41,456 nt of DNA from a virus: UHGV virus genome UHGV-1460059; one strand, given 5' to 3'. Below are positions 1 to 41,456 of the stretch, piece by piece. Below the pieces are notes generated by a model. That model saw only the letters and a program-made list of their open reading frames with translations. It did no database searches and had not been told where the DNA came from. Position numbers and translations under genes: made by a program. The first letter of the stretch is position 1. Every line of letters begins with the position of its first letter.

Positions 1-612
1 CGTGGTGCCTGTAAAACTTTCCAGAGTCTGGTCGTTAGTTCGTGAAGTCCAGATTCCCCAATAGTGGTTATGACTGACAATCGCACCGTCCTGAAGCGTT
101 AATAATCCCCTTCCGTTATCCACTCCACGTCCGTCATCCCAGCCACGAATAAACTCACCGCGTAAATCAGGCAATTTATTTGTCGGGTAAGCCTTTGCCA
201 GTTCCGGGTATTCTTCAGCAGAAAAAGCCGCACCATTGCATTTCAGCCAGCCTGTCGGCGGAGTGGCGGAAGGCCACGGAACAGGCACACCAACAGGTAA
301 TGCAGAGCCTTCTCCCAAACCAAGGTTTTCGAGAGCCGTTTTCACCGTGCCATCCGATTTGATATCGCCAAACGGATTCTTGCGGCTTAACAGCAGCGCA
401 CGAAGCGCGGTAAGCAGCTGGTCGTGCCGCGCCTTCTCCAGACTGGCACCGGATGCCTCAACAACGCTACAAAGTTCTTCCTGCAGCATGTCAAAGTAGT
501 CATCATCCAGATCGGTGGCAGGCGTGCCAGTCTGGGGGTTACCACGGGTAAAACCGTTCTTACCCGCGCCGAACTTATCCTTCTGCGCGGTTTTCGTGTC
601 TATACGATGCAT
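1..612 (-). CDS. Tail fiber protein, N-terminal part (ATG at 612; gene runs off the window start, 3' end not in window)
   Basis: Own translation of the minus strand from ATG 612..610: [50 protein letters not shown]...[19 protein letters not shown], open to position 1. Recalled as a typical lambdoid side tail fiber N-terminus with a tail-collar-like motif. Absent from the ORF track because no stop lies in the window. Confidence 0.6.
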
Positions 613-615
613 GGA

Positions 616-1200
616 TTACTCCGGATATTTAAAAATTACGTAGGTATGCGACGGGCAGAGTTTGTTAAGCACACACTCGACAACGGTGTCACCCCAGATA
701 CGCAGTGCGGAATCACAGGGATCGCCACATGTCATCCAGGTGGTGTTGGTGGTGGCTGGCATGTTGACCTGCCAGTAATACCGCCATTCCGGCGCATTCA
801 CCGCGTCAGTACAGGCCGATGAGCAGGTGAACGTGCTTTTGTCGTATCGCGTGATGGTGGCATCTGGTCTGCCCAGGGCAGCAAGCTGTGCAAGATAAAA
901 ATCCTCGTTGATGCCGCCCGCCAGGTTAACCTTCGCATCCAGTCGTTGCTGACGCTGGCGAAGGGTCTGTGTCCCTGCGGGAATACATTCATCCGGCAGG
1001 CCGCACAGACGCTCCCAGCGATTTATCAGTTCGGTGGTGGTGCGCGGATCCAGCTCCCGCATCAGGGCATCCGCACGCTGATGAATGCGGGTTAATGACG
1101 GTGCCGCACCGGCAATCGCCGGATCGCTGGCTGACCACGCCGGACCGGGGGGCAACAGTGCCGACAACAGACGGATGTAATCATCGTTTGTCACGTCCAT
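616..1200 (-). CDS. Tail/baseplate protein, Mu gp48-like (DUF2313-type)
   Basis: 194-aa ORF between the baseplate J-like gene and the tail fiber, the gp48 position in a Mu-like tail module. Stop is 3 nt from the fiber ATG. Confidence 0.5.
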
Positions 1201-2249
1201 GAAATCGTCCCCAGTACCGCCAGTTCATTTTTTGCAATGGAGATATTGTCTGCCGGTGCAAGCAACTGATGGCTGTATTCCCCGTTCGCACCGGAAATCG
1301 CCTCACTGATACGCGACACCTTCAGTTCTCCCTGCGGATAACCATCACGCAGCAGGAACGAACGCAACTCGGCGGTGATGGCAGCCCGTATTTCCGGTGT
1401 GTCCGGCGTCACGCGGATATGAAAATCCACTTTATGCGCCACCGGCCTGAATACATACAAATCAGAGCCTGCCACCGGGGCCAGTGGCTCAATGTGTTGT
1501 CTTGCCGCCGTTTCCGTTGATTCTTCCGGAATGGGATTAATCAGGTCACTGCTGGCAATCATCACACCGACAGTTCCCGTTCCCATCCAGTGACGGTATG
1601 TCCATGCGCGGGTAATGCCGGGCACTTCTTTAGCCCAGACAACATAGTCCCCGTCAGCCCCGCCCTGAGGCGTCCAGTAATACCGCTCAATGACGCGGGC
1701 GCGCCACGTTTCCAGATCTTCAGTATCGAATCCGCCAGTCAGGGTATCTGCAACACCGGAAGACGGCAGACCATTCACCGGCGTGACCAGGATTAATGCC
1801 GTACCGTCGTCAGCGTTACCGACCGCGCCTGCACTTGAGCAGGCGATCGGCACGCGCAGGACACCACCGGAGCTGGTTGCATCAGCAGTTGCCGTGTACT
1901 GAACCAGGTCATCGCGCTGAATCACGCTCCCGGCGGTCACCTTCAGGCCATCGCTGACACCTTCCCAGCGCATATACCCGCTGGCAGCCGTGGCCCCCTT
2001 GCGCGGACACCGTTTCATCGCAGCATGTCGCGCCAGCCAGGACTCATCGCACAGGTCAGGCAGCATGTTCATTGCCAGATAATCGATGTAACCGTAAACC
2101 GTATGCAGCGCCGCCGCATACACCTTTGCCCGCACGTCTTCATCCATGCGCCGGAGCGTGTCGCTGACGTCCAGCCTGGCGAATAAATCGTTACGGAGCA
2201 TACTGATATTTTCTGCCAGCGTCGGGCGCTGAAATTCACTGTCCGCCAT
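1191..2249 (-). CDS. Baseplate J-like protein (Mu gp47-like)
   Basis: 352-aa ORF in conserved order after the gp46-like gene, overlapping its neighbours by a few nt. Size and position fit a baseplate wedge protein. Confidence 0.6.
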
Positions 2250-2664
2250 GCGTTATCGCACTCCACAGATCATCAAAAGAAATCATTACCGGTCCGTCAC
2301 GACGCCAGAGGGTGATACTGTTACCCAGCTCATTAATCCCGGTGCGGCGGATATCCAGATCAATACGGGACACCACGCCGTCATCAATCATCCATTGCAG
2401 GCATTCGCGGATATACCCCCTTACTGTCTGCACCAGCTGATTGGTCAGTTTGCTGCGCTGAAGCAGCCACAGTCGTGAGCCGTAACGGTCATTCTGTACC
2501 GCAGGCCAGGTATCCCCCCACCATCCCATCGGGACGTCGGCGTTGTCATCAGGCTCCGCCCGCCGCCAGGTAAACAGGGAAATCACCACGGCGCGGGTCA
2601 GCGGATCCAGCGGTGCGCTGGCGCAGGTGCGTTTACCGTTCACCGTCAGCCACAGTTCCATCAT
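2236..2664 (-). CDS. Baseplate protein, Mu gp46-like
   Basis: 142-aa ORF between the spike and J-like genes with overlapping stop/start junctions. Confidence 0.5.
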   Translation of the reverse strand: MMELWLTVNGKRTCASAPLDPLTRAVVISLFTWRRAEPDDNADVPMGWWGDTWPAVQNDRYGSRLWLLQRSKLTNQLVQTVRGYIRECLQWMIDDGVVSRIDLDIRRTGINELGNSITLWRRDGPVMISFDDLWSAITHGGQ

Positions 2665-3209
2665 GCCTCCATCGCTTTATCCGGTTTGTCGGTGTTACTG
2701 CCCTGACCGTTCTCTCTGTGACGATGCCCGTTATAGGCAAGCCGCATCGCTGACATGGTAGTGCCGCTGGAGTCGCACAGGTCTTTCACCTGTCCTGTCA
2801 CTTCCAGGTCCATTTCAAAACGTGCTTTAGGTGAATTGCGAAACGTGATCGTTTTACCTGCACCGTCCACCACGATCCCCTCCCGGGTCAGCGTCACAGA
2901 CTGCCCCTGATCGTCATAGACAGCCACCTCACCCGTCTGCAACCCTTTCAGGCGGTAGCGCCGGTCCGACACCGTAACAACCACCGCATGAGAACGGTCG
3001 CCATCCGGAAACAACACCACCGCTTCCGCGCCGCTGTTTGCCCTTGCGGTAAAACCGTAGGGTTCAAGATGTTCAACCCCGGCTTTGGGTTCACCGGCAA
3101 TCAGGGACACATCCACGGTCTGACATTTCGTGGCGGCACTGATGCTTTTCACCACTGCCCGCGCAATCAGGCCGAGAAGTTGTCGCTGCATGGCTTCAAT
3201 CGTCCTCAT
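2661..3209 (-). CDS. Baseplate assembly protein V-like / central spike (Mu gp45-like)
   Basis: 182-aa ORF in the gp45 position; length and position fit a gpV-type spike. Confidence 0.55.
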   Translation of the reverse strand: MRTIEAMQRQLLGLIARAVVKSISAATKCQTVDVSLIAGEPKAGVEHLEPYGFTARANSGAEAVVLFPDGDRSHAVVVTVSDRRYRLKGLQTGEVAVYDDQGQSVTLTREGIVVDGAGKTITFRNSPKARFEMDLEVTGQVKDLCDSSGTTMSAMRLAYNGHRHRENGQGSNTDKPDKAMEA

Positions 3210-4288
3210 CAGAACGGGTCCTCCTGTACTCTGGCTTTTTTCTTTTTCCGCGCGCCGGGGGCTTCGGGTTCAGGCAGATAAGCATCAGGCGGGCCGACAC
3301 GGATTTCCGTCAGGGTGCCGTTCTGGTCCTGAGTAAACGTGACTTCCGAGACAAGCAGTTCGGTATTGTCGAAACCACAGACTGGATCGAAGACAATCAC
3401 CCGCTGGTTGGGCTGCCACAGCGTACCGTTACCCTGTCGCCAGCCCTGCACCACATAGGTGGTTTCATCCGTCCGCGCCGCCCGTTGTCGGGCTTCAAAG
3501 TCAGCACGCGCAATACAGCCTGCCCCCGTGGCCTGCCCTGTCTGCCTGATATACATCGGACGGTAACGGGCAATAAATGCGTCCTCTGTGCGGGCCCGCA
3601 GCGCGGTGGTGGTGACCTCACCGAAATCATCGTCGTTTCCGGCACGCTGCCCCGCCACCTGGTAAACAGAAAACCGCTCCCGGATACTCTTCTCCGTATC
3701 ACAGGAAAGGATGTTTTCCCCAAGTACCAGCGCGGTATGTGCCCGCGTTGAGCCAATACCGCCAATCACCAGCCTGCCGTGCGGATCGTCGTAAGCCAGC
3801 GCCTGCTGCTGACCGAGTATTTTGTTGATAACCTCAATCACCGTTTCACCGTGATCAGGCTGAACATCAGGAATAACACCCGACGGCGCACCGCTGTTCA
3901 CCACCTCAATGCCGAAAGGCGCAGCAAGCGCCTGCGCAATCTGCACCAGCGAGCGTCCGTTAAACTGTGTCGGTTCGGCTGCACAGTCAATCAGGTCAGC
4001 CGTCAGACTACGTCCGGCAATACCGGTGCTGACCGAACGGGCATCGTAACGAACGGGAGTCGCCTCCACCCAGCCGGTGATCACCAGCTCATCACCAATC
4101 AGCACTTCCACTTTTGAACCGTTTTTAATGCGCGGCTGAAGCGTGGTGATACCCTCATCTCCCGGCCACTGGCGAGTGATCTCCACACTGAAATCCCGCG
4201 CCAGCCGTTCAATACCGGCACCGATGCGCACCGATGTCCAGCCATTCCACTCCCGGCCATTTACCCGTAGCGTGACATTGTCGTTCAT
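3209..4288 (-). CDS. Baseplate hub protein (Mu gp44/P-like)
   Basis: 359-aa ORF between the DNA-circulation-like gene and the spike gene. Confidence 0.5.
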   Translation of the reverse strand: MNDNVTLRVNGREWNGWTSVRIGAGIERLARDFSVEITRQWPGDEGITTLQPRIKNGSKVEVLIGDELVITGWVEATPVRYDARSVSTGIAGRSLTADLIDCAAEPTQFNGRSLVQIAQALAAPFGIEVVNSGAPSGVIPDVQPDHGETVIEVINKILGQQQALAYDDPHGRLVIGGIGSTRAHTALVLGENILSCDTEKSIRERFSVYQVAGQRAGNDDDFGEVTTTALRARTEDAFIARYRPMYIRQTGQATGAGCIARADFEARQRAARTDETTYVVQGWRQGNGTLWQPNQRVIVFDPVCGFDNTELLVSEVTFTQDQNGTLTEIRVGPPDAYLPEPEAPGARKKKKARVQEDPF

Positions 4289-31830: not shown

Positions 31831-31938
31831 AAATCAGCACGTACGAATTCAAACTCTGCCATAAAAGAACATATAAGTAATTTATTAACATATAGATATA
31901 GGTTATATTACAAATTGAAAAATTATTGGAGAGCAACA

Positions 31939-32805
31939 ATGAATCAAAATCCATTCTCATTCTATGACTTTCTTGGATATTTAATACCAGGTGGTTTTTT
32001 TATCCTATTAATGTATTTCTGTGGTTTGACATTCGATCTAGATATTGTTATTGACTTAAGTGAATTGCTCAGAGGTCAAAGTCAAATCTTTGGCATTTTG
32101 AACTACGCTTCAATAGTTATTATATCTTATATAGCTGGACATTTTATTTCTATCACGTCAGCATTTTTTATCGAAAAATACATGAATAAAGAATTAGGAT
32201 ATCCTTCCAAATATCTATTTAAAAAATTGATAGATACCTCAGAAAGCATTTGTAGCCCATCATGCGATGAGAGAAGCGCTGATAAAAAAACAAAAATAAA
32301 GAATCGCATAATCAAATGCGTATTATGCCCAATAATACTATGGGATTTTATAACACAAAAACTATGTTATTCTCAATCTCTACCATTTCATTTAGCTAAT
32401 ACAACATGGTTAATGATCAAAGAAGGTTATGAGAAAAAGTTCATAACAAATCGCCAATTATTACAAGATAAAAACGGACTTGATGATGATCTCTTCAGAT
32501 TGGCATATCATTATGTTTATGAGTTTTCAAAACAACATCAAACAAAAATTCAAAACTATGTTGCATTATATGGTTTTTGCAGAAACATATGTTTAATCTT
32601 TATAATTTCATTTTGGGTATCAGTTCCAACCTTTATTTATCGATTATGTACTCATAGTGATTATCTTTATAGTTTACTTTCAATAATGCTTAGCTTTTTC
32701 TTCGTCTATGTTTTCTATGTTGGTTTTGTTAAATTTTATAGAAGATATACTTTAGAAGTATTAATGGCATTTGCTGTACTTCAAAGTAACGACACTATTC
32801 GTTAA
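31939..32805 (+). CDS. Polytopic membrane protein, very AT-rich (accessory gene upstream of xis/int)
   Basis: ATG at 31939 with GGAGAG upstream. Several hydrophobic segments (LGYLIPGGFFILLMYFCGL; IFGILNYASIVIISYIAGHFISI; ICLIFIISFWVSVPTFIY; LLSIMLSFFFVYVFYVGFV). GC content is far below the flanking phage genes. Confidence 0.45.
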   Translation: MNQNPFSFYDFLGYLIPGGFFILLMYFCGLTFDLDIVIDLSELLRGQSQIFGILNYASIVIISYIAGHFISITSAFFIEKYMNKELGYPSKYLFKKLIDTSESICSPSCDERSADKKTKIKNRIIKCVLCPIILWDFITQKLCYSQSLPFHLANTTWLMIKEGYEKKFITNRQLLQDKNGLDDDLFRLAYHYVYEFSKQHQTKIQNYVALYGFCRNICLIFIISFWVSVPTFIYRLCTHSDYLYSLLSIMLSFFFVYVFYVGFVKFYRRYTLEVLMAFAVLQSNDTIR

Positions 32806-32846: not shown

Positions 32847-33053
32847 ATGCTGAACCTCGATTGTGTTCCTATCTCAACTTATTGCAAAGAAACTGGCGAA
32901 ACTCCTGAAGCAATAAACAAACGTGTACAGCGCGGTGTTTGGCGTGAAGGTGTTCAGGTTTTAAAGGTTGAAGGCGTTAAGGAGAGGTGGATTGATCTTA
33001 GTGAGGTTGCAAAATGGGCCAGACAAAACTGCTCAAACTACCGCGCGGCGTAA
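32847..33053 (+). CDS. Excisionase-like small DNA-binding protein
   Basis: 68-aa basic protein whose 3' end overlaps the int start by 40 nt. ATG at 32847 has GGAG upstream; the alternative start is 32835. Confidence 0.45.
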   Translation: MLNLDCVPISTYCKETGETPEAINKRVQRGVWREGVQVLKVEGVKERWIDLSEVAKWARQNCSNYRAA

Positions 33054-34186
33054 CAATCAGGAAACACCGCCAGGGAGAAACGATCAATATAACTTTCACC
33101 TACAAAGGAGTTAGATGTCGTGAGCCGCTTTCCAATCTGGAAGTAACACCAAAGAACATTAAATACGCCGAGCGTACACTCGGCGAAATCCATAATAAGA
33201 TCGAAAGGGGAACATTCATTTATGCAGAATATTTTCCCCGTTCTGCTCGTTTGAAAATTTTTGGTAATGCTGCTGCAGGCAAAACGGTAAAGATGTACCT
33301 GGACGAATATCTTGAAATCTGCGAAACAAGAAAACTTTCACCCTCTACGATTGGTGGCTATAAAAAATGCCGTAGTGCGTTAGCCTCACTTCACATTTGC
33401 CCTGCAAGTGAATTAACACCAGCAACCCTGAAAGCGTGGATTCAAAATCAGAAAACGACCTTAAAAACAATTCGCAACCAGTTATCTTTCCTGCGGTCAG
33501 CACTTGATGAAGCCGTGACCGATGGGGTACTTCAAATTAACCCCGTATCGTTAGTAACAGCTTCGCGCTACCAAAGTGATAAGTCAGAAGCAGAAAGCAG
33601 CTACGTAGTTGATCCGCTATCACCAGCAGAAGTTGATGCATTACTAGCAGCAGCCGGAAACAAACAATGGGAAAATCTGTTCCGGTTCGCTATACATACA
33701 GGCCTGCGTAGTTCTGAATTATGTGCCCTTCGATGGCGTGATATCGACTTTGTTGGAAAAACTGCCCATGTCCAGAGCGCAAGTGTTGTCGGTGTTATCA
33801 AAGGGACAAAGACAAAAGCAGGTACTCGGAAAGTTGAACTGACAGAAGAGGCAATGTTGGCGCTGATAAATCAGAAGCCATTTACATTCATGAAGGATAC
33901 TACTGTCTTTGAAGATCCAAAGACCAATAAGCCTTGGGCAAGTGCTGATGCAATCAGGAAAAAAGCATGGGTGCCAACATTGCGAAAAGCAGGTATTCGT
34001 TACAGAAATCCATATCAAACTAGGCATACATTCGCCACCCGCCATATCAGCCGGGGAGCAAACCTGTTTTGGCTTGCAGCTCAAATGGGGCATAAAGGGC
34101 CGGAAATGTTATTTCGTCATTATGGTTCATATTTAAAGGAATATGACGGTAATACGACCAGCAATATCACAAAAAAAGCCACTTAA
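33014..34186 (+). CDS. Tyrosine integrase (lambda-type, with arm-binding N-terminal domain)
   Basis: 390 aa; C-terminal catalytic signature including …HTFATRHISRGANLFWLAAQMGHKGPEMLFRHYGSYL… (R, HxxR, Y). Confidence 0.9.
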   Translation: MGQTKLLKLPRGVTIRKHRQGETINITFTYKGVRCREPLSNLEVTPKNIKYAERTLGEIHNKIERGTFIYAEYFPRSARLKIFGNAAAGKTVKMYLDEYLEICETRKLSPSTIGGYKKCRSALASLHICPASELTPATLKAWIQNQKTTLKTIRNQLSFLRSALDEAVTDGVLQINPVSLVTASRYQSDKSEAESSYVVDPLSPAEVDALLAAAGNKQWENLFRFAIHTGLRSSELCALRWRDIDFVGKTAHVQSASVVGVIKGTKTKAGTRKVELTEEAMLALINQKPFTFMKDTTVFEDPKTNKPWASADAIRKKAWVPTLRKAGIRYRNPYQTRHTFATRHISRGANLFWLAAQMGHKGPEMLFRHYGSYLKEYDGNTTSNITKKAT

Positions 34187-34199: not shown

Positions 34200-34583
34200 T
34201 TAGGAGGCTCTCGATTTAAGCATTTCCGTACACTTAGCAAAGAGCCTCTCAGTTGTTAGAATCGCAACTTCAGACTGTTTAGAAGTGACCGATTGATCAA
34301 GTCGATAGTCTGCAACAATCCTCTGAGCTTTAAGTTGACTCAGGATAAAACTAATCCCTTTTAGATATCTAGCTTCATATACTTCACTTCCTCTTGAAGC
34401 ATCGCCCTGCAAATAATTGATTAGCCCCTGATGACTGTCTTTCGGCCCGTTTACCATACAAGGCAAGACATGATGGTAAGCGCCATAGTAGGATCTTGCT
34501 ATAGCATTTCGATAGCCGATTTCGTCATTACGTTGATGACAGTCTTTTGCAAAACCGAGAAAATCTTGACTATTAACCGGCAT
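34200..34583 (-). CDS. Hypothetical protein with R-x6-H motif (HEPN-like candidate), distal gene of the int-att operon
   Basis: ATG at 34583 with GGAGGG 7 nt upstream; 127 aa; motif RSYYGAYHH; 11-nt overlap with the upstream gene. Confidence 0.4.
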   Translation of the reverse strand: MPVNSQDFLGFAKDCHQRNDEIGYRNAIARSYYGAYHHVLPCMVNGPKDSHQGLINYLQGDASRGSEVYEARYLKGISFILSQLKAQRIVADYRLDQSVTSKQSEVAILTTERLFAKCTEMLKSRAS

Positions 34584-35388
34584 GTGCAACCCTCCGGGTA
34601 ATCAGACCTAATTCGGAGATAGCATTCTGCTCAATATGTGTGTCTTTACATTCAAACCAAACAGCAAAATCTTTACCGACTAAACAATCGTGCTCAGCCA
34701 TTGAAAAAGCAAGCTCAATATTCATATCAGCGATTTGTTCAGCATCAGAAGACTTTGTCATGAATACAATCGCATTCACTTTCTCTTCCGAAATATTATA
34801 AAAACGCATTCCCGAAAGATGAACCTTCTGAGAATCCATGACATTGGCTACATTATTGAAAATAAGTTCATATTCTAAACCAGAAAGATCGGCACGTTGC
34901 TTAAAGGATTCGACCTGGGAAACAACTTCATCAAAATTGTTGTCCATTTTTTCAGGCTCCTTATCTCCGAACAATTTAGAGTATGACTGGAAATACTTCT
35001 CCGCCAACGCCATCTTCCCCATAAAGAGGGAGTTTTCATAAGCTTGAAGATAAATAAACGGGGATATGAAGCTTTCAGCAAGCTTAATGCTTGTTTCAAA
35101 GCTTTTCTTCAACGTACCGTAATCTGACAAGAAAACAAGAAAATTCTTTGCAACAACCTCATTATGGCATACCTGCAAGGAACGCTCAAAGAAGCCTATC
35201 GCCTCATTCACTTGGCCATGTGCACCATAGACCAACGCTAAAAGATAGTCCTCAGAGACAGGATCTCTAAGTGCTTCAATCTCACGTAACATCCTTCTAA
35301 AGCTAAAGTCATCAATCCTCACTCCATCTTTGAGGTATTTAGTTAGCCGCGCGCTAATAACTGATGCTTTTTTTGCTGGCTGCAACAT
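34573..35388 (-). CDS. Hypothetical protein (271 aa), AT-rich, first gene of the int-att operon
   Basis: Long ORF in AT-rich DNA; helical-repeat-like N-terminal half; no recognised catalytic motif. Confidence 0.45.
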   Translation of the reverse strand: MLQPAKKASVISARLTKYLKDGVRIDDFSFRRMLREIEALRDPVSEDYLLALVYGAHGQVNEAIGFFERSLQVCHNEVVAKNFLVFLSDYGTLKKSFETSIKLAESFISPFIYLQAYENSLFMGKMALAEKYFQSYSKLFGDKEPEKMDNNFDEVVSQVESFKQRADLSGLEYELIFNNVANVMDSQKVHLSGMRFYNISEEKVNAIVFMTKSSDAEQIADMNIELAFSMAEHDCLVGKDFAVWFECKDTHIEQNAISELGLITRRVAHAG

Positions 35389-35815
35389 TAAAAACCTTAT
35401 CTTACAAATAGTTGGTAATGATGTTGAATTATTTTTTGTTCTTTATGGCTAATAAGATTACATGAAGGGACAACTTCTGACCACCTTAGAAAACACTCAC
35501 TTTAGTAACAAGAGTCAATAATATTGTTGACAAATCACAAAAAAACAAACTTATCCAAAACAATCTGGTTTATCACAAAGCCTCTGTGCATAAATCTGTG
35601 CATAACATCATTTTTACACACATTTTTTTATAAAAATATTTTTTAGCAAAAAATGCTATCTATCTCCGAAACTGCAACCACAAACCATTAATTCCAAATG
35701 AAACTATTTTAAAATAAATAGTAAGACAGTAACAGGACAGAAAAAGTTCCGCAAAAGAGCCGCTTGTAAAATCAACAATATTTGGCTATTTAAATTCAAT
35801 GAATTACATAACTAT

Positions 35816-35847
35816 GGACACGGGTTCAACTCCCGCCAGCTCCACCA
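35816..35847 (+). other. ssrA (tmRNA) 3'-end-like fragment: attachment-site core / junction between two integrative elements
   Basis: GGACACGGGTTCAACTCCCGCCAGCTCCACCA matches the recalled E. coli tmRNA 3' terminus with one mismatch. Upstream sequence is AT-rich and unlike ssrA, so only the terminal ~32 nt are present. Confidence 0.6.
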
Positions 35848-36012
35848 CTTTTTAGTTGTTTGAAGTTCAATGAAGTCTACTAAGCCCACACAGCACAAGC
35901 TCTGCGGGCTTTTTTACGTCTATTGTCGTCCAGTGAGAATTGCTGAGAACTACGAGTTATGGCACCCTGAATGGGACCCACTAAGAAGGGTCCAAAAACC
36001 GAGGGTCCCAAA

Positions 36013-37242
36013 ATGGCAAAAATCGCTAAGAAGCTCACTGACACTGAAATCAAAAGCACCAAGCCAGCCGATAAAGAAATCAACTTGTTTGACGGTGATG
36101 GTCTGATTCTACGAATCGCTCCTTTGGCGAAAGGAGGCAAGAAAAATTGGTATTTCAGGTATGCAGTACCAGTGAGCAAGAAAAGAACCAAAATGAGCCT
36201 TGGGACATATCCTCACCTTACCCTTGCAAGAGCCAGAGCCTTACGTGATGAATATCTCTCCTTTCTGGCAAATGGTGTTGATCCCCAAATCCATAACAAC
36301 GATAAGGCGAAGGCATTAAAGAGTGCTACTGAGCACACTCTCCAAGCCGTAGCGCGGAAATGGTTAGATGAGAAGGTAAAGACATCAGGTATCTCACAAG
36401 ACCATGCAGCAGACATCTGGCGCAGCTTAGAGAGAAATGTCTTTCCCGGTCTGGGTAATGTCCCTATCAATGAGATCCGACCTAAGCTCTTAAAACAACA
36501 CCTTGATCCTATTGAGCAACGAGGCGTATTGGAAACTCTACGCCGTATCATTTCACGTCTGAATGAAATCTTCCGGTGGGCAGCTACTGAAGAACTTATT
36601 GAGTTCAACCCGGCTGACAACCTTGGTCAAAGATTCAGTAAACCAAAAAAGCAAAATATGCCTGCCCTTCCCCCAAGCGAATTGCCAAGGTTTATGGAAT
36701 CTTTGACGAATGCGTCAATCCGGTTGGAAACACGTATGCTAATTGAATGGCAATTGTTGACATGGGTTCGTCCGGGTGAAGCCGTTCGCGCAAGGTGGTC
36801 TGATATTGATACAACCAACAGCATTTGGAACATTCCTGCTGATTTCATGAAAATGAAAAAGCTTCACAAAGTTCCTTTGAGTAAAGAAGCTTTGCGCATC
36901 CTTGAATTAATGAAATCAATAAGTGGGCATAGAGAATGGGTTTTCCCCAGCATAAAAGCGCCTCTTAATCATATGCATGAACAAACAGCCAACGCAGCTA
37001 TCATCCGAATGGGGTTCGGAGGCGAGCTTGTAGCTCACGGTATGCGTTCTATTGCACGAACAGCGGCAGAGGAGTCTGGTAAATTCAGAGCTGAAGTTCT
37101 TGAGGCAGCGCTTGCCCACTCGAAAAAAGATGAAATTATCGCAGCATACAATCGTGCAGAATATCTGATAGAGCGACAGAGTTTGATGCAATGGTGGAGT
37201 GATTACGTTCAAGCTCAAAGATCAAATGCTCTGGTAGCCTAA
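36013..37242 (+). CDS. P4-type tyrosine integrase (IntA-like)
   Basis: ATG at 36013 with GAGGG upstream. N-terminus MAKIAKKLTDTEIKSTKPADKEINLFDGDGLILRI… is typical of P4-family integrases; lies ~165 bp downstream of the ssrA-like fragment. Confidence 0.85.
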   Translation: MAKIAKKLTDTEIKSTKPADKEINLFDGDGLILRIAPLAKGGKKNWYFRYAVPVSKKRTKMSLGTYPHLTLARARALRDEYLSFLANGVDPQIHNNDKAKALKSATEHTLQAVARKWLDEKVKTSGISQDHAADIWRSLERNVFPGLGNVPINEIRPKLLKQHLDPIEQRGVLETLRRIISRLNEIFRWAATEELIEFNPADNLGQRFSKPKKQNMPALPPSELPRFMESLTNASIRLETRMLIEWQLLTWVRPGEAVRARWSDIDTTNSIWNIPADFMKMKKLHKVPLSKEALRILELMKSISGHREWVFPSIKAPLNHMHEQTANAAIIRMGFGGELVAHGMRSIARTAAEESGKFRAEVLEAALAHSKKDEIIAAYNRAEYLIERQSLMQWWSDYVQAQRSNALVA

Positions 37243-37280: not shown

Positions 37281-37697
37281 ATGGAAACCCTATTCAAAGT
37301 TTTTGAAAAATTTAGTTCCAGACCACTTTTTTTTATTTTTTTCGGACTCTCACTTTGTGAATTTTTTCAGAAACAATCTGTTCTGATGAATCCATCAGCA
37401 GATAACATCGCGAAATTATTCGCAGCCATGATATTAGTTGTTTTTTTTACTTGGGGATTTGAATGGCTAATCTTCAAGTTCAATGTAAACCTTGAACCTC
37501 ATGATCAAGGCGATATTGGACCAACAATTGGAACGGCTACTTTAGCTGTATACTTAGTTTATGCCTTTCACTTTCTCAGTGAAAATCCTGAAGCATTAAA
37601 TTTAAAGTTATTAACTAACTCTGGCTTTATATACAGCACAACTCTATTATTATTCTCATTAGAATGCATGAAGCTTAGAAGACTTAAACAAAAATAA
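37281..37697 (+). CDS. Small membrane protein (138 aa), AT-rich island cargo
   Basis: Hydrophobic segments (PLFFIFFGLSLCEFF; LFAAMILVVFFTWGFEWLIF; TIGTATLAVYLVYAFHFL; FIYSTTLLLFSL). Confidence 0.4.
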   Translation: METLFKVFEKFSSRPLFFIFFGLSLCEFFQKQSVLMNPSADNIAKLFAAMILVVFFTWGFEWLIFKFNVNLEPHDQGDIGPTIGTATLAVYLVYAFHFLSENPEALNLKLLTNSGFIYSTTLLLFSLECMKLRRLKQK

Positions 37698-37728
37698 ACA
37701 ACATCATTGTGATGATAAATATAAAATA

Positions 37729-37755
37729 GGCATGGCGAAAAAAAATCACCACGCC
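37729..37755. terminator. Imperfect hairpin between convergent genes (candidate terminator)
   Basis: ggcatggcga-aaaaaaa-tcaccacgcc (8 of 10 pairs); U-rich on the minus strand after the stem. Confidence 0.35.
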
Positions 37756-37768
37756 TAAAATATAATAA

Positions 37769-39517
37769 TTATGGTAGCATCATTGATACATAATCCACAC
37801 CAATCCTTGAGCTATACTGAGACGCTATAGCCTGATATCTTTCTGCATAACCAGTTCTCAGTTGAGATTTAAGTTTGAGTCGGACAGGAACATTTTGCAC
37901 GTTGCCATCCATATTACTTAAAAACACGGCAGAAATAATATTTTTTTCTTCGCCATCAACTGTTGTTCCATGATTCAACACCACCATATAATCAACAACA
38001 GGAAGCGTTTTATCCCCTTCGAAAATAGAGAGATATTTTCTTTGATTTTTATGCATTACATATATATATTTCGAATGTTCAGCAAATGGCAATGCTTTAC
38101 TCTGACTGGCGTTAAAAAGCTCCAGAACTTTAATGAGCCTGTGCGGACTTAATCTTACATGGTGAGGGTCGTTACCCTGAGTAGGAACCAAATCACATGC
38201 CGCAGATACACATAAATACCATTTGTTCGACTCTGTATCAAAGAAAATAGTGCCAGTAGAAATATGACCATCTTCAAAATTCTTTGAAGACAAATTCATA
38301 TTTAAAGCATGATACATTTCGTGATAAGTATCATTATTTGATGGCAGATCCATTTTTGAAGAGCAATATTGGAGCAATGCAGCAACTCCGCTGTTAGCGT
38401 ATTCATTTGAATAGCTATCAAAAACACTTTTGATAAATTCATCCAGCGTATTATTATTTTTAAGTCTTTGATAAAGCTCTTCTGATAAATTACCAAATAC
38501 AAAGTCAATATTTCTACATCTAATATCAGGCGAGTCTGATTTTAATATCTCATTTAACCACGCAGCTTGACCGTAATGATCGTTAGCAAAATGATTTACA
38601 AAAGATAAAGCCTCAGCTTCGATTGCATTCTGAATTTCAGATTTTATTAACTGATAATAAGATGGTTTCCATTCAATGAGAGAATCATTGAGAGTTTGCC
38701 AAATCCTATCTCCATCGTTTTCATGATCATCTTGAACCTTATGAAATAGGGAGACAAAGATATTACCACATTGAATCCATTTTACTCCGCTTTCATCACC
38801 CCGAATGACATTGCCAGATGTGTTGCTAGAAATAATTGCATTTCTAGACACAGCATATTCTGCAATCATTTTTGCAATGAAGTTTTTATCCTTTTGATCC
38901 TCCAACACAGCATCATCATGTATTAATCTTTTAATTCTTCTACAAGGCTTACTGTCTTTAATATAGGCTATTGTTTCATCTCTTGTGAGAGCTTTATTAC
39001 CATTATCATTTAAGTTCGGTAATACAACGTCTTCCCAATAACTTTGGACATCTTCATTATCGTAGTCAATGATCAAGCTGTTGATATCCAGAGCACCTTT
39101 GAGAGTCGATGATATCTGCATCCAAACCGTTTCTAAATTCTCTCTAGTATATATTACAATCATATTTAAATGATCGGAGTCTTTCAAATCTTGTAATAGT
39201 TTAAGTGTTTTATCAGGTGCATTATTATCAAGATGATAATCTACAATAATAAGATCTGATTTTCTAATCCGATCCACATCGAAATTAACAGAACCATTGT
39301 CAACATCACAAATCATATTTTTAGATTGAAAAAAGCTCTCAAGAGTAGCGGCTCGTTTAGATGAGTCAATTTTGTTGTAGTCTAAATCAACTTCGTTATT
39401 CAACGCCCTGATTGATTCAGAATACGTCAGAAAATCGTCATCAATCATGACAACGGAACGAATTGCATTTTCGCAGAAAGTTTTCTGGACAAGAGAATTA
39501 TAATTTGCCACTGTCAT
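37769..39517 (-). CDS. Receiver (REC)-domain protein with ~450-aa uncharacterised C-terminal domain
   Basis: N-terminal REC-like signature: VVMIDDDF (acidic pocket), LIIVDYHL (phospho-acceptor Asp), NMIVIYT (Thr). Start preferred at ATG 39517, 1 nt after the upstream stop; ATG 39535 is the alternative. Very AT-rich. Confidence 0.5.
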   Translation of the reverse strand: MTVANYNSLVQKTFCENAIRSVVMIDDDFLTYSESIRALNNEVDLDYNKIDSSKRAATLESFFQSKNMICDVDNGSVNFDVDRIRKSDLIIVDYHLDNNAPDKTLKLLQDLKDSDHLNMIVIYTRENLETVWMQISSTLKGALDINSLIIDYDNEDVQSYWEDVVLPNLNDNGNKALTRDETIAYIKDSKPCRRIKRLIHDDAVLEDQKDKNFIAKMIAEYAVSRNAIISSNTSGNVIRGDESGVKWIQCGNIFVSLFHKVQDDHENDGDRIWQTLNDSLIEWKPSYYQLIKSEIQNAIEAEALSFVNHFANDHYGQAAWLNEILKSDSPDIRCRNIDFVFGNLSEELYQRLKNNNTLDEFIKSVFDSYSNEYANSGVAALLQYCSSKMDLPSNNDTYHEMYHALNMNLSSKNFEDGHISTGTIFFDTESNKWYLCVSAACDLVPTQGNDPHHVRLSPHRLIKVLELFNASQSKALPFAEHSKYIYVMHKNQRKYLSIFEGDKTLPVVDYMVVLNHGTTVDGEEKNIISAVFLSNMDGNVQNVPVRLKLKSQLRTGYAERYQAIASQYSSRIGVDYVSMMLP

Positions 39518-39518
39518 A

Positions 39519-41237
39519 TTAGAACTCCACTTCATTGAACTGGATCACAAAATTAGCGCCATCTTTTATTAAATAGTTATCGCCTTCATCAGGTTCTGAA
39601 TACCATATTTTATGATGTGCAACAGCAAGGTTTTCTCGACATAGATACAGACCTACCCCATGTCCATTTGCTCTTTTGCTATAAAATAGTTCAAATAGTC
39701 GCGGGATATCATCGGTATCAATTGCCGGACCAGAATTTGCTATGATAACCAAAGAATTCACAAAACCAATCTTTATGAGCCTATTATTTGACAGACTGAC
39801 CCAATACATTGCATTGTTGATAATATTAGTAAAAACAGGATAGATCCTTGATGGTATATCTGTTATTGCGATTTGCTTAAACTCTTCACTAAATTCAATA
39901 GTTATTCGTTGCCGTTCGAAACGCTCCCCAAAGAACTTCAGGACATAATCCATGATATTTTTTCCAGTTATTCTCTGCCTGGATTGATAACCTGATATTT
40001 TCAAAGGTGATAAGAAACGTATTTGTTGAGTAAGCGATCTGTGAGCATTTAACGCCAATGAAAAACCAGGGTGTTCTTTTACAGAAGTAGGAAGAGAGTT
40101 TAGTCCTCTGGTTACCATAGAATCCATTTCTTCAAGTTCATGAGATATTATCTCAACACTAATACCTAACTGTGCAAGCGCGTTTAAACTTTTAGCTTTT
40201 TCTTCAAAATATGAGCGTTCTTCTTCAGATAATGAGAATGCTGAATCTAAGTTTATACCTTCAAATAATCTATCGAGACCTTTTATTATTGATTGATATT
40301 TGAAAGTTAGGGTATCAACTGACTCAACATATAAACTATCGAGCAAATTAAACACATTTTCAATTTGTGAATCATTATCTATTGAATCAACAACTGATAT
40401 AGTTTTAGCATAATAATCACTTCGATCAACCTTTATTTCATCGGCCCATTTTTTTAAAAGAGAATGTATCTTCTCCTCTATCGTGTTATTAAACTTAGTT
40501 AGTTTAGAATTAATAATACCTTGATTTTTTTCAAGGTGATTTTTCGCTGACAATGAAGGCTCAAGTTTATTTAATTCAGAATCAAGTTTATTAATTGCTA
40601 ACTTCATTTGTAGAATATACGCAGAGAACTCATTAAATTTATCTCTGTAGTCTCTATATTTCTCTTCATACATTCCAAGTTTTGGAGGTTTGATAGGCGT
40701 TTTAATTTCACTGCGCAACGCATCTAAGTTTGTAAGATCACTGTCTATAATTTTAAGATAGTTTAAATCTAACGAACCATCAGTTTTATCAAGCTTAGTT
40801 TTCAGCCTTTTAACAGCCTCCAAGGAAGCATCAAGAACTGGTGTCTGATTCTTCAAAGCTTCTGAAAAACTTTTTTGTGTTGATTTTCGAGCTTGTTGTT
40901 GAGCAGATTTTCTTAACTCTTTTTCACGCTTAACTTGTTCTAAAAGCTCTTTACGGTCATCAGAACGTGAACCAAAAAATCTATCAGCAAGTTCAGTTAA
41001 CAAATTAGATATAATAGTTTTCAGTTCTCTTGCAGCCTGGTTTCTTATGAATCCCTCTCTCCCCGACTTATCTTTCAGCTCTTTATTACTGGATTGAGTA
41101 ATTCCAATATAACCAAAAATCCTTCTATTAGACCAATAATATCGCCCTGCATTCCATGAACGTCTTTCTTCTATCTGGAAGAAATCATTATCTACTCGAC
41201 CATAAGGTAATACTCTCAAGCTATCCCTAAAAATCAT
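39519..41237 (-). CDS. Soluble histidine-kinase-like protein (coiled-coil N-terminal region + HisKA/HATPase-like C-terminus), apparently 5'-truncated
   Basis: H-box-like ISHELEEM, N-box NIINNAMYW, G1 NSGPAID, G2 GHGVGLYLC; no TM segments. The reading frame stays open upstream of the first ATG to 41363 inside the IS end, with no start codon. Confidence 0.5.
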   Translation of the reverse strand: MIFRDSLRVLPYGRVDNDFFQIEERRSWNAGRYYWSNRRIFGYIGITQSSNKELKDKSGREGFIRNQAARELKTIISNLLTELADRFFGSRSDDRKELLEQVKREKELRKSAQQQARKSTQKSFSEALKNQTPVLDASLEAVKRLKTKLDKTDGSLDLNYLKIIDSDLTNLDALRSEIKTPIKPPKLGMYEEKYRDYRDKFNEFSAYILQMKLAINKLDSELNKLEPSLSAKNHLEKNQGIINSKLTKFNNTIEEKIHSLLKKWADEIKVDRSDYYAKTISVVDSIDNDSQIENVFNLLDSLYVESVDTLTFKYQSIIKGLDRLFEGINLDSAFSLSEEERSYFEEKAKSLNALAQLGISVEIISHELEEMDSMVTRGLNSLPTSVKEHPGFSLALNAHRSLTQQIRFLSPLKISGYQSRQRITGKNIMDYVLKFFGERFERQRITIEFSEEFKQIAITDIPSRIYPVFTNIINNAMYWVSLSNNRLIKIGFVNSLVIIANSGPAIDTDDIPRLFELFYSKRANGHGVGLYLCRENLAVAHHKIWYSEPDEGDNYLIKDGANFVIQFNEVEF

Positions 41238-41358: not shown

Positions 41359-41456
41359 TGATCCTACCCACGTAATATGGACACAGGCCTAAGCGAGGTT
41401 CTTGTTTTCAAATTGTTCCGGACTGAGGCCGCCACACCAACTGTGCCGCCGCCACC
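41359..41456 (-). mobile_element. IS3-family insertion sequence, terminal ~100 bp (inverted repeat plus 3' end of the transposase gene), continuing beyond the window
   Basis: Terminus TGATCCTACCCACGTAATATGGACACAGGCC. Minus-strand translation of 41454..41387 gives …WRRHSWCGGLSPEQFENKNLA*, the conserved C-terminus of IS3-family OrfB. Matches the IS3 right end as recalled. Confidence 0.7.

Follow-up and report, generated by a model that had tools for sequence, protein, structure and literature searches.

The window analysed here, a stretch of 41,456 nucleotides from the virus genome UHGV-1460059, contains the following features around a short match to the tmRNA gene ssrA (ΦNP is a phage of Citrobacter rodentium; E14, SFE8 and LY180 are among the E. 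coli genomes compared below).

32847..33053, plus strand: excisionase gene xis, overlapping the start of int; 93% amino acid identity to the annotated ΦNP excisionase
33014..34186, plus strand: prophage tyrosine integrase of the ΦNP type, ssrA-specific; 93% amino acid identity to ΦNP Int
34200..35388, minus strand: cargo, two open reading frames (129 and 271 aa) with no assigned function, in the slot between int and attR
35389..35815, plus strand: int-proximal arm of the prophage attachment site, non-coding and AT-rich, identical in E14
35816..35847, plus strand: hybrid core, ssrA nt 332-363, read as prophage attR and island attL (BLAST, Rfam, shuffles)
35848..36012, plus strand: island left arm (core-to-integrase spacer), found directly after intact ssrA in island-only genomes
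35882..35915, plus strand: island-borne intrinsic terminator, hairpin and T-run (inverted repeat I1, terminator scan, fold)
35972..36009, plus strand: three GGGWCC(C) copies, TGGGACCC inverted, then GGGTCCA and GGGTCCC direct
36013..37242, plus strand: island integrase of the P4/IntA type (domains, NCBIfam, identity to IntA and P4 Int)
from 37281, plus strand: island cargo (whole cargo span 37281..41237), gene for a 138-aa hypothetical protein (open reading frames, SFE8 annotation, Pfam)
37769..39535, minus strand: island cargo, Response_reg_2 protein, one of a two-gene pair
39519..41237, minus strand: island cargo, HEF_HK/HATPase_c protein, the other member of the pair
41359..41456, no strand assigned: terminal part of an IS3 element, by which the island is truncated, with the terminal sequence TGATCCTACCCACG... 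at 41359

Positions 35816-35847 on the plus strand read GGACACGGGTTCAACTCCCGCCAGCTCCACCA and match the last 32 nt of E. coli ssrA (nt 332-363) at 31 of 32 positions. BLAST of the K-12 gene (363 nt) against the window aligned these same nucleotides with an E value of 2e-10, and all other matches were noise of 11-15 nt, so the remainder of ssrA is absent from the window. The sequence GGACACGGGTTCAACTCCCGCCAGCTCCACCA occurs once in the window, and none of 100 dinucleotide shuffles matched the ssrA end with three or fewer mismatches. No tmRNA gene was found in the window by ARAGORN or by an Rfam scan at the gathering threshold, and a permissive scan with RF00023 aligned the 3' tRNA-like end alone (21.1 bits versus a gathering score of 47). 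The stretch is an ssrA fragment and not a tmRNA gene. Its single mismatch is at position 35820, which is A in the fragment and G in ssrA; in the permissive scan this A and its partner C form a non-standard pair at the first position of the T-stem. A preliminary description of this DNA had proposed just such a ~32-nt 3' end with one mismatch that would disrupt the T-stem, and had named the absence of the match on alignment to tmRNA as grounds for abandoning its reading; the match is present, and the pairing defect lies where it was expected. The distances it gave, ~1.6 kb to the upstream prophage integrase and ~165 bp to the downstream P4-family integrase, agree with the end of int at 34186, 1630 nt before the core, and with the ATG at 36013, 166 nt past it. 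The interval it delimited, 35812-36013, spans the core and the entire core-to-integrase spacer.

Two features sought by Islander are present in the prophage: a tyrosine integrase within the element (33014-34186, with the Pfam domains Arm-DNA-bind_2 and Phage_integrase) and a distal 3' fragment of the target gene beyond chance expectation. The two cargo genes at 34200-35388 are annotated as hypothetical in SFE8, and neither Pfam nor PADLOC gave them a convincing match. Within the int-proximal arm lies a conserved block, 35735-35763 (GGACAGAAAAAGTTCCGCAAAAGAGCCGC); when the right arms of the window and ΦNP are compared, no other long stretch ahead of the ssrA copy is conserved. A similar block occurs in the left arm after ssrA, and 35735-35763 is a candidate site for arm-type protein binding. 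TTTAAATTCAATGAA and TTGAAGTTCAATGAA form a direct repeat that flanks the core at a distance of 12 nt on each side; with one copy belonging to the phage and one to the island, it was treated as chance. The prophage had been called lambdoid, a label that suits its regulatory and lysis modules (the near-identical SFE8 prophage has lambda-like cI/cro-like repressors, Q, RusA and a lambda-family holin) but not its tail modules, which are Mu-like and contractile as in ΦNP (sheath, tube, Mu Gp45/46/48 and baseplate J). It is a mosaic myovirus of the ΦNP type. The phage collection held no free-phage record with an exactly matching attP; ΦNP alone matched (83% nucleotide identity over int), apart from short matches to the core.

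The gene at 36013-37242 encodes a P4-type integrase, as first described. Its Arm-DNA-bind_3, Phage_int_M and Phage_integrase domains all scored above the Pfam cutoffs, NCBIfam model NF007246 matched at 440.6 bits (cutoff 434), and the protein is 48% identical to K-12 IntA and 34% identical to P4 Int over the full length (E 2e-82, 416 aligned positions, residues 7-407 of 409). The three domains together with full-length similarity to P4 Int are those of a P4-type (IntA-like) integrase. At the other end of the island, SFE8 and LY180 have an IS3 transposase annotated at the corresponding place and a truncated ygaQ after it. Neither the window nor the two relatives inspected showed a right-end repeat of the island, and a search of the window and of the downstream SFE8 sequence gave no third copy of the ssrA core (three or fewer mismatches in 16 nt). 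Given the missing right-hand repeat and the IS3 end, the island is probably a truncated remnant that is immobile and fixed in place. The locus does hold two elements, each with its own integrase, as had been proposed, but only the prophage still looks mobile.

We compared the locus with 5426 complete E. coli genomes, using as a probe the last 200 nt of ssrA joined to the first 250 nt of the island. This ssrA-island probe was matched at a coverage of at least 80% in 962 of the 5426 genomes, in many of them at 100%. LY180, the island-only genome inspected, has an identical integrase (WP_001341819.1) behind ssrA and shares the cargo, IS3 and the truncated ygaQ. The tandem ssrA-prophage-island junction occurred in 21 genomes and the same phage arm beside a different downstream flank in 18; the island is absent beside the phage arm in E14, the one of these 18 inspected. 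The strains lacking either element with which the preliminary description had wished to compare the locus therefore exist, with E14 as the prophage-only case. Its expectation of an intact ssrA at the far prophage end was borne out in all five prophage carriers inspected (SFE8, 1500, MY203L1, W409 and E14). The source genome itself is absent from the collections, so it is from these relatives that we infer an intact ssrA ~4-6 kb beyond position 1 of the window.

Megablast of window positions 1-24000 against the same 5426 genomes gave no full-length match, and the best matches were ~98-99% identical and mosaic. Exact-protein matches (YmfQ-like and baseplate-J proteins) occurred in many prophages, most of which, among the matches listed, are not at ssrA; the L028 and L030 prophages, from the exact-protein matches listed, adjoin smpB. 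L015, the best match, is 99.9% identical from position 309 on and lies at a different chromosomal site. Prophages with a common int-att module carry different tail modules in different strains. Such tail-module swaps are a counterpoint to fresh integration, and some arrangements could stem from homologous recombination.

The fragment is very probably a hybrid attachment site, formed when a ΦNP-like prophage inserted between ssrA and an island that was older, truncated and equipped with a P4-type integrase. That the prophage had integrated at ssrA upstream of a resident ssrA island, leaving the copy as a displaced att core, was already suggested from the window, and the strain comparison supports it. 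In the starting host, a small island with a P4/IntA-type integrase and a far end cut by IS3 would have adjoined ssrA on its 3' side. The attP of a ΦNP-like temperate phage, holding its own ssrA 3' end with A at the first T-stem position and a left arm that bears a terminator, would then have recombined with the 3' end of the intact gene. At the distant attL, ssrA would have been rebuilt from its bacterial 5' part (with G) and the phage left arm with its terminator. The former ssrA end, together with the island terminator, arm and integrase, would have been displaced ~40 kb downstream and fused to the phage right arm, which would supply the A, so that the fragment would be the attR of the prophage and simultaneously the old attL of the island. 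The ssrA gene of the source genome is accordingly predicted to end in ...GGACGCGGGTTCAACTCCCGCCAGCTCCACCA, with 'atcatgattgg...' and a terminator after it. With int and xis intact and repeats on both flanks, the prophage should be able to excise and restore the ssrA-island junction. The predicted attP circle junction is '...cataactat GGACACGGG...CCACCA atcatgattgg...' (right arm, GGACA...CCACCA and 'atcatgattgg'), and the chromosome would return to ssrA (G) followed by 'ctttttagttgtttgaag...' ('ctttttagttg'); a circular form of the island would not be expected.

The mismatch at 35820 bears on where the crossover took place. In the junction table, all intact ssrA copies have G and all copies adjoining the phage arm 'cataactat' have A, whichever follows downstream, the island or the 'atcatgattgg' flank. 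Since the A accompanies the phage arm regardless of the downstream sequence, it is best read as derived from the phage, and it is probably part of attP. In tyrosine-recombinase integration, the attR bases 5' of the crossover derive from attP; applied to position 35820, this rule would give the A an attP origin. With the A so assigned, the crossover would fall within the 27 identical bases to its right (CGGGTTCAACTCCCGCCAGCTCCACCA). The copy had been called degenerate, which implies that the G-to-A change arose by decay in situ of a functionless displaced fragment. Selection for tmRNA function would be absent on such a fragment and drift would yield one substitution, but decay would not account for the same A wherever the phage arm occurs, in two unrelated downstream contexts, or for a junction ~100% identical across 19 genomes. 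The related ΦNP, moreover, has a different mismatch on the same T-stem strand in its own copy, and the attP rule would already cover bases on this side of the crossover. We therefore regard decay as highly improbable and 'degenerate' as a misnomer, the A most likely belonging to the phage-derived side of the hybrid attR.

The A does not discriminate between the two possible orders of arrival, for which we relied on parsimony (962 versus 21 genomes, and the shared IS3 boundary). If the prophage had come first at ssrA, the P4-type island could later have entered the copy at the prophage attR, which keeps 27 nt identical to ssrA and is in principle a possible secondary attB. Either order is seen at this locus, CP4-57 in K-12 lying upstream of a phage-like remnant. 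However, the island of LY180, with the identical integrase and the same IS3/truncated-ygaQ boundary, sits directly behind intact ssrA, and the ssrA-island junction occurs in up to 962 genomes while the tandem occurs in only 21. The reverse order would thus require a later IS3 truncation and then widespread precise loss of the prophage, and it is the distal element that is truncated, whereas the prophage, proximal to ssrA, looks complete. We consider this order very unlikely. Alternatively, the whole ssrA region might have been gained as a segment by homologous recombination or transduction rather than by integration in this lineage, a history suggested by the ~100% identity of the junction in strains from very different hosts and by the mosaic prophages with their swapped tail modules. 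This would explain only the spread of the arrangement, however. The anatomy of the junction is still exactly site-specific: it breaks cleanly at CCACCA, and attL and attR form a pair. Segment transfer, itself unlikely, would therefore not replace site-specific insertion beside an older island as the main explanation.

The spacer at 35848-36012 is homologous in layout to the ssrA-intA spacer of K-12, and its hairpin (35882-35915) is homologous to the one after K-12 ssrA and also to the IsrM model of Rfam at the model's 3' end. In island-only strains this terminator is the first after ssrA; in the window it is preceded by the fragment only. At the place corresponding to the three GGGWCC copies, CP4-57 of K-12 has TAGGCCCA twice and one inverted copy, and in the P4 record attP arm repeats are annotated between the core and the int ATG. 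Shuffled sequences were equally good in ~2% of cases (p ~0.02), and given this modest support the copies at 35972-36009 are presented as candidate arm-type sites for the island integrase. It is extremely unlikely that the spacer encodes an IsrM-like small RNA starting in the ssrA fragment. The IsrM model (RF02763) did align to 35838-35915 with an E value of 2.7e-13, but only through its positions 1-20 and 274-329, which amount to the ssrA tail and the terminator, and with 52.8 bits against a gathering score of 376. The fold was no better than those of shuffles (z = -0.9), and no promoter-like site was found just upstream, the promoter scan giving none that would make the fragment a transcription start. 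By eye, the sole candidate is ATTACA, 17 nt and TCAACT, with key -10 bases missing. We rejected IsrM as a gene at this position, since 253 model positions are deleted and only the model ends remain. Both ends of Salmonella IsrM thus have counterparts in the ssrA-copy tail and the pre-integrase terminator, whereas its 253-nt body is absent from the window; the comparison suggests that IsrM may be located in an equivalent core-to-integrase spacer.

A regulatory role for the displaced fragment, island terminator and repeat-bearing spacer as one module, acting through a transcript or an integrase switch, seems exceedingly doubtful. A short transcript resembling IsrM could come from read-through or from a weak promoter within the phage arm. 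Insertion of the phage could, alternatively, uncouple the island integrase from ssrA read-through, in which case the presence or excision of the prophage could switch expression of that integrase.

The seam sets exact boundaries, with the right end of the prophage at 35847 and the island running from 35848 to ~41358, and accessory genes can therefore be assigned to their carriers. The genes at 34200-35388 belong to the phage and the HEF_HK/receiver pair to what is probably a fixed island remnant, and the seam would make the phage the younger of the two. We predict that horizontal mobility is retained by the phage-borne cargo only. The arrangement itself is well known and ordinary: tandem elements at the tmRNA gene, its restoration by the arriving element and the targeting of ssrA by this type of integrase are all documented already, and nothing here is new beyond the bookkeeping of boundaries.

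Tandem arrays at tRNA and tmRNA genes, the general principle of such integration and the tmRNA gene as the most enriched target have been described with Islander/TIGER (PMC4383910). As in those arrays, a regenerated target gene, predicted for the source genome from the relatives, and a displaced 3' fragment in the same orientation would mark the ends of the elements. Because the repeat begins at the T-stem, the crossover would belong to their combined class J (T loop or T/acceptor-stem junction; PMC4383910). An Islander tandem array calls for a fragment and an integrase in each member, whereas the second element in the window has its own integrase but has lost its distal tDNA fragment.

For ΦNP, the closest known phage, experiments have demonstrated integration into the 25-bp ssrA 3' end of E. 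coli K-12, with ssrA being rebuilt (PMC6456863). It shares with the window prophage the target at the ssrA 3' end and Int and Xis (each 93% identical in amino acids), and its record (GenBank OR565852) begins and ends with a 25-nt ssrA core, GGTTCAACTCCCGCCAGCTCCACCA. In both phages the homologous left arm carries a terminator, the right arm has the conserved block, cargo occupies a slot between int and att, and the tail is contractile. The two differ in the int region, where 40% of the query aligns at only 83% nucleotide identity, in the remainder of the right arm, and in the cargo slot, which holds an AAA ATPase gene in ΦNP versus two unannotated genes in the window. The T-stem mismatch in the right-end core copy of ΦNP is T at position 7, compared with A at position 5 in the window. 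As ΦNP lysogenises K-12, which carries CP4-57 behind ssrA, the same tandem of phage and then P4-type island would be expected in those lysogens.

Like the window island, CP4-57 has a P4-type integrase (48% identity between the two) located ~200 bp past the ssrA end, with a homologous terminator hairpin and three short repeats in front of it. Unlike the 5.5-kb window island, which has different cargo and an IS3 end without a repeat, it spans 22 kb, keeps a degenerate right-end repeat, psaA (CTCCGCCAGC-CCACCA), and adjoins intact ssrA. The int-attP module of P4 has the same integrase architecture (34% full-length identity), a core ~150 bp upstream of int and arm repeats between core and ATG. The host target of P4 is the tRNA-Leu gene leuX. 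The P4 core differs from the ssrA 3' end, the P4 replication and helper-exploitation genes are lacking from the window island, and the P4 arm repeat is GGGGGCAT versus GGGTCCC in the island.

The only trace of ssrA (the tmRNA gene) in the window is its 3'-terminal 32 nt, GGACACGGGTTCAACTCCCGCCAGCTCCACCA, which occurs once, at 35816-35847 on the + strand. When the 363-nt K-12 ssrA was compared with the window by BLAST, only nt 332-363 aligned (31 of 32 identical), the remaining matches being 11-15-nt noise, and none of 100 dinucleotide-preserving shuffles matched the 32-mer with three mismatches allowed. ARAGORN and an Rfam scan at the gathering threshold found no tmRNA or tRNA gene across the whole window. 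A permissive Rfam scan recovered the 3' tRNA-like end only (21.1 bits, gathering score 47) and set A at 35820 against C, a non-standard pair at the first T-stem position. The preliminary description of a tmRNA 3'-end remnant of about 32 nt, with one mismatch disrupting the T-stem, therefore holds on alignment to tmRNA, and its distances to the two flanking tyrosine integrases are correct (one ends at 34186 upstream, the other starts at 36013 downstream). This core serves as attR of a ΦNP-like prophage to its left and as attL of an island to its right, with the following features around it:

31915-32805, +: 296-aa ORF just upstream of the excisionase and integrase genes, in the kilobase where prophage GC is lowest (0.32)
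32847-33053: small excisionase-like ORF, upstream of and overlapping the prophage integrase gene; 93% identical to the annotated ΦNP excisionase
33014-34186: prophage integrase (Arm-DNA-bind_2 and catalytic domains)
34200-35388, −: overlapping pair of cargo genes (129 and 271 aa) separating the phage integrase gene from attR
35882-35915: terminator hairpin, homologous to the K-12 hairpin after ssrA
35972-36009: GGGWCC(C) motif in triplicate, with an inverted copy and two direct ones, ending just before the island integrase ATG
36013-37242: island integrase (Arm-DNA-bind_3, Phage_int_M and catalytic domains)
37281-37697: 138-aa gene, no matches
37769-41237, −: gene pair for a HEF_HK/HATPase_c protein (572 aa) and a Response_reg_2 protein (588 aa)
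41359-41456: IS3, whose terminal inverted repeat begins at 41359 and truncates the island

The segment 34000-37400 is about 100% identical in 19 complete E. coli chromosomes and matches two more at about 91%, so that 21 genomes (coverage of this segment at least 80%) share the tandem configuration with the window. No complete genome is identical to the window, and its late-gene region is mosaic, 97-99% identical to several prophages. In the orientation of the window, the annotation of strain SFE8 runs from prophage through a site-specific integrase and two hypothetical genes to the core, then through an 'integrase domain-containing protein', a hypothetical protein, a receiver-domain protein and an ATP-binding protein to IS3, truncated ygaQ and glaH-lhgO-gabDTP. 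The locus is thus the classical E. coli ssrA-to-gab interval, occupied by CP4-57 in K-12.

Strains lacking one or the other element exist, as the comparison proposed at first reading called for. To detect the island-only configuration, a probe was built that joins the terminal 200 nt of ssrA directly to the 250 nt following the core. Of 5426 genomes, 962 covered this probe to 80% or more, many of them with a 100% match. One of these island-only strains, LY180, has the order smpB, ssrA, integrase WP_001341819.1 (identical to the island integrase of the window), the same cargo, IS3 and truncated ygaQ. In the phage-only strain E14, the same phage right arm and 32-mer lead into 'atcatgattgg...', behind which come ypjA, a pinH remnant, ileY and ygaQ; 18 genomes cover this phage/'atcatgattgg' junction. 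All five prophage-carrying genomes inspected (SFE8, 1500, MY203L1, W409 and E14) have an intact annotated ssrA at the far prophage end, adjoining smpB and oriented like the fragment. Strain 1500 can be aligned over the whole of window 1-4000 (97.4%), and from the point that matches window position 1 the distance outward to the 3' end of ssrA is 4.3 kb in 1500 and 6.0 kb in SFE8. By analogy with these relatives, an intact ssrA would be expected beyond position 1 of the window.

The island with its IS3 boundary directly behind ssrA is very common and the tandem form is rare; moreover, the ssrA-proximal prophage looks complete, whereas the distal island is truncated. On these observations the most parsimonious order would be insertion of the island, then truncation by IS3, and arrival of the phage last, which supports the original proposal that the prophage inserted between ssrA and a resident island. 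The reverse order, with the prophage in place before the island, is highly improbable. Spread of the arrangement through homologous recombination is unlikely, and the identity of the fragment is unaffected by either alternative. The first interpretation of the locus as a whole is supported, with qualifications concerning the origin of the mismatch, the truncation of the island and the placing of ssrA from relatives. It is already known that target genes are regenerated, that a 3' fragment is displaced and that elements form tandem arrays at the tmRNA gene (PMC4383910), and experiments have shown that this type of integrase uses the ssrA site (PMC6456863). The value of the seam lies in the element boundaries it sets for the neighbouring accessory loci; the phenomenon itself is textbook.

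In the junction table of all fetched loci, intact ssrA reads GGACGCGGG in every case, and every copy behind the phage arm (the int-proximal arm, '...aattacataactat') reads GGACACGGG, whether the island arm ('ctttttagttg', the start of the core-to-integrase spacer) or the 'atcatgattgg' flank comes next. In integration by a tyrosine recombinase, attR bases 5' of the crossover derive from attP. A35820 therefore probably belongs to an imperfect ssrA end carried by the phage itself and did not arise by decay of a displaced bacterial fragment; since it tracks the phage arm in both downstream contexts, the term 'degenerate' first applied to this copy is probably not apt. A phage-borne A would place the crossover within the 27 identical bases CGGGTTCAACTCCCGCCAGCTCCACCA, and with the crossover to its right, G would be retained in the rebuilt ssrA. 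ΦNP behaves alike, its right-end copy (tttcGGACGCTGGTTCAAC...) carrying a T-stem mismatch different from that of the window. Because the repeat starts at the T-stem, the crossover falls in combined class J of the Islander paper (T loop, or T/acceptor-stem junction; PMC4383910).

The prophage integrase is 93% identical to that of Citrobacter phage ΦNP, whose record has a 25-nt core, GGTTCAACTCCCGCCAGCTCCACCA, at both start and end. ΦNP is a spontaneously released myovirus with this 25-bp sequence as attP; in E. coli K-12 derivatives it integrates into the ssrA 3' end, duplicating the 25 bp and reconstituting intact ssrA (Magaziner et al., PMC6456863). Since CP4-57, with its P4-type intA, sits directly behind ssrA in K-12, we infer that ΦNP lysogens of K-12 have the same tandem architecture as the window. 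Besides the ssrA copy, right-arm conservation between this prophage and ΦNP falls mainly in a block at 35735-35763, GGACAGAAAAAGTTCCGCAAAAGAGCCGC, the sole long conserved stretch upstream of that copy. It resembles a left-arm block after ssrA in related genomes, and on sequence grounds the two are candidate arm-type Int/Xis sites.

The two cargo genes at 34200-35388 had no Pfam match and only marginal PADLOC matches. In ΦNP the same int-attR slot holds an unrelated AAA ATPase gene, indicating a variable cargo position. The prophage had been called lambdoid, which is apt for its regulatory and lysis modules but not for its Mu-like, contractile tail. MY203L1 (L011) and W409 (L012) have the same int-attR module and island junction with a lambda-type non-contractile tail (gpJ, Lom); such different tails beside one int-att module indicate that the module is exchanged among mosaic prophages. 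The 296-aa ORF, with no Pfam match and a weak PADLOC match to Csx27 (E 1.4e-5), may be a membrane-protein moron. At the other end, window 1-308 (about 300 nt) differs from the comparison prophage L015, which is elsewhere 99.9% identical; this stretch lies in the tail-fibre region, adjoins an invertase in relatives and is consistent with an invertible host-range segment.

The island integrase passes NCBIfam NF007246 and is 48% identical to K-12 IntA and 34% identical to P4 Int (full length, E 2e-82), so that, together with its domain architecture, its earlier assignment to the P4 family is correct. The spacer from core to ATG is 165 nt, and its hairpin at 35882-35915 is the first terminator past ssrA in island-only strains. 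The GGGWCC(C) triplet was equalled in about 2% of shuffles (p about 0.02, modest support). A TAGGCCCA triplet occupies the equivalent position in CP4-57 of K-12, as do annotated attP arm repeats in the P4 record; by this analogy the motifs are candidate arm-type integrase sites. A near-repeat (TTTAAATTCAATGAA at 35789-35803, TTGAAGTTCAATGAA at 35860-35874) flanks the core at a distance of 12 nt on each side, with one copy in phage DNA and the other in island DNA, and probably reflects chance.

With PADLOC 2.0, the kinase-like HEF_HK/HATPase_c protein had no match and the receiver-domain Response_reg_2 protein a marginal, unconvincing one (E 0.003). The island extends to about 41358 (5.5 kb), and a search of the window and of the downstream SFE8 sequence found no further ssrA repeat. 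IS3 abuts truncated ygaQ in relatives, a boundary also present in LY180, which indicates that ypjA-ileY and the island right end were deleted. The island is thus a truncated remnant, with attL and without attR, and is probably immobile.

The Rfam model of IsrM, a Salmonella island-encoded sRNA, aligned at 35838-35915 only through its two ends, 20 positions at the start and 56 at the close (253 model positions deleted; 52.8 bits, gathering 376). An IsrM gene here was rejected, as the 253-nt body is missing and the score is far below gathering; in Salmonella the gene itself may lie at a corresponding place, in the spacer that separates an ssrA copy from a P4-type integrase.

About 4096 of the 5426 E. 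coli genomes have the 'atcatgattgg...' segment (about 150 nt); in most sampled rows it comes directly 3' of ssrA, and in K-12 it also lies past the CP4-57 right end. With its terminator (comparison loci L002 20500-20653, − strand; L003 22987-23140; L009 26-180) it is homologous to the ΦNP left arm, and a pinH invertase remnant lies nearby in K-12. This homology and the nearby remnant suggest that the 'native' downstream flank of ssrA could be what remains, now fixed, of an older ΦNP-like prophage, in which case the ssrA locus would be layered even in 'empty' strains.
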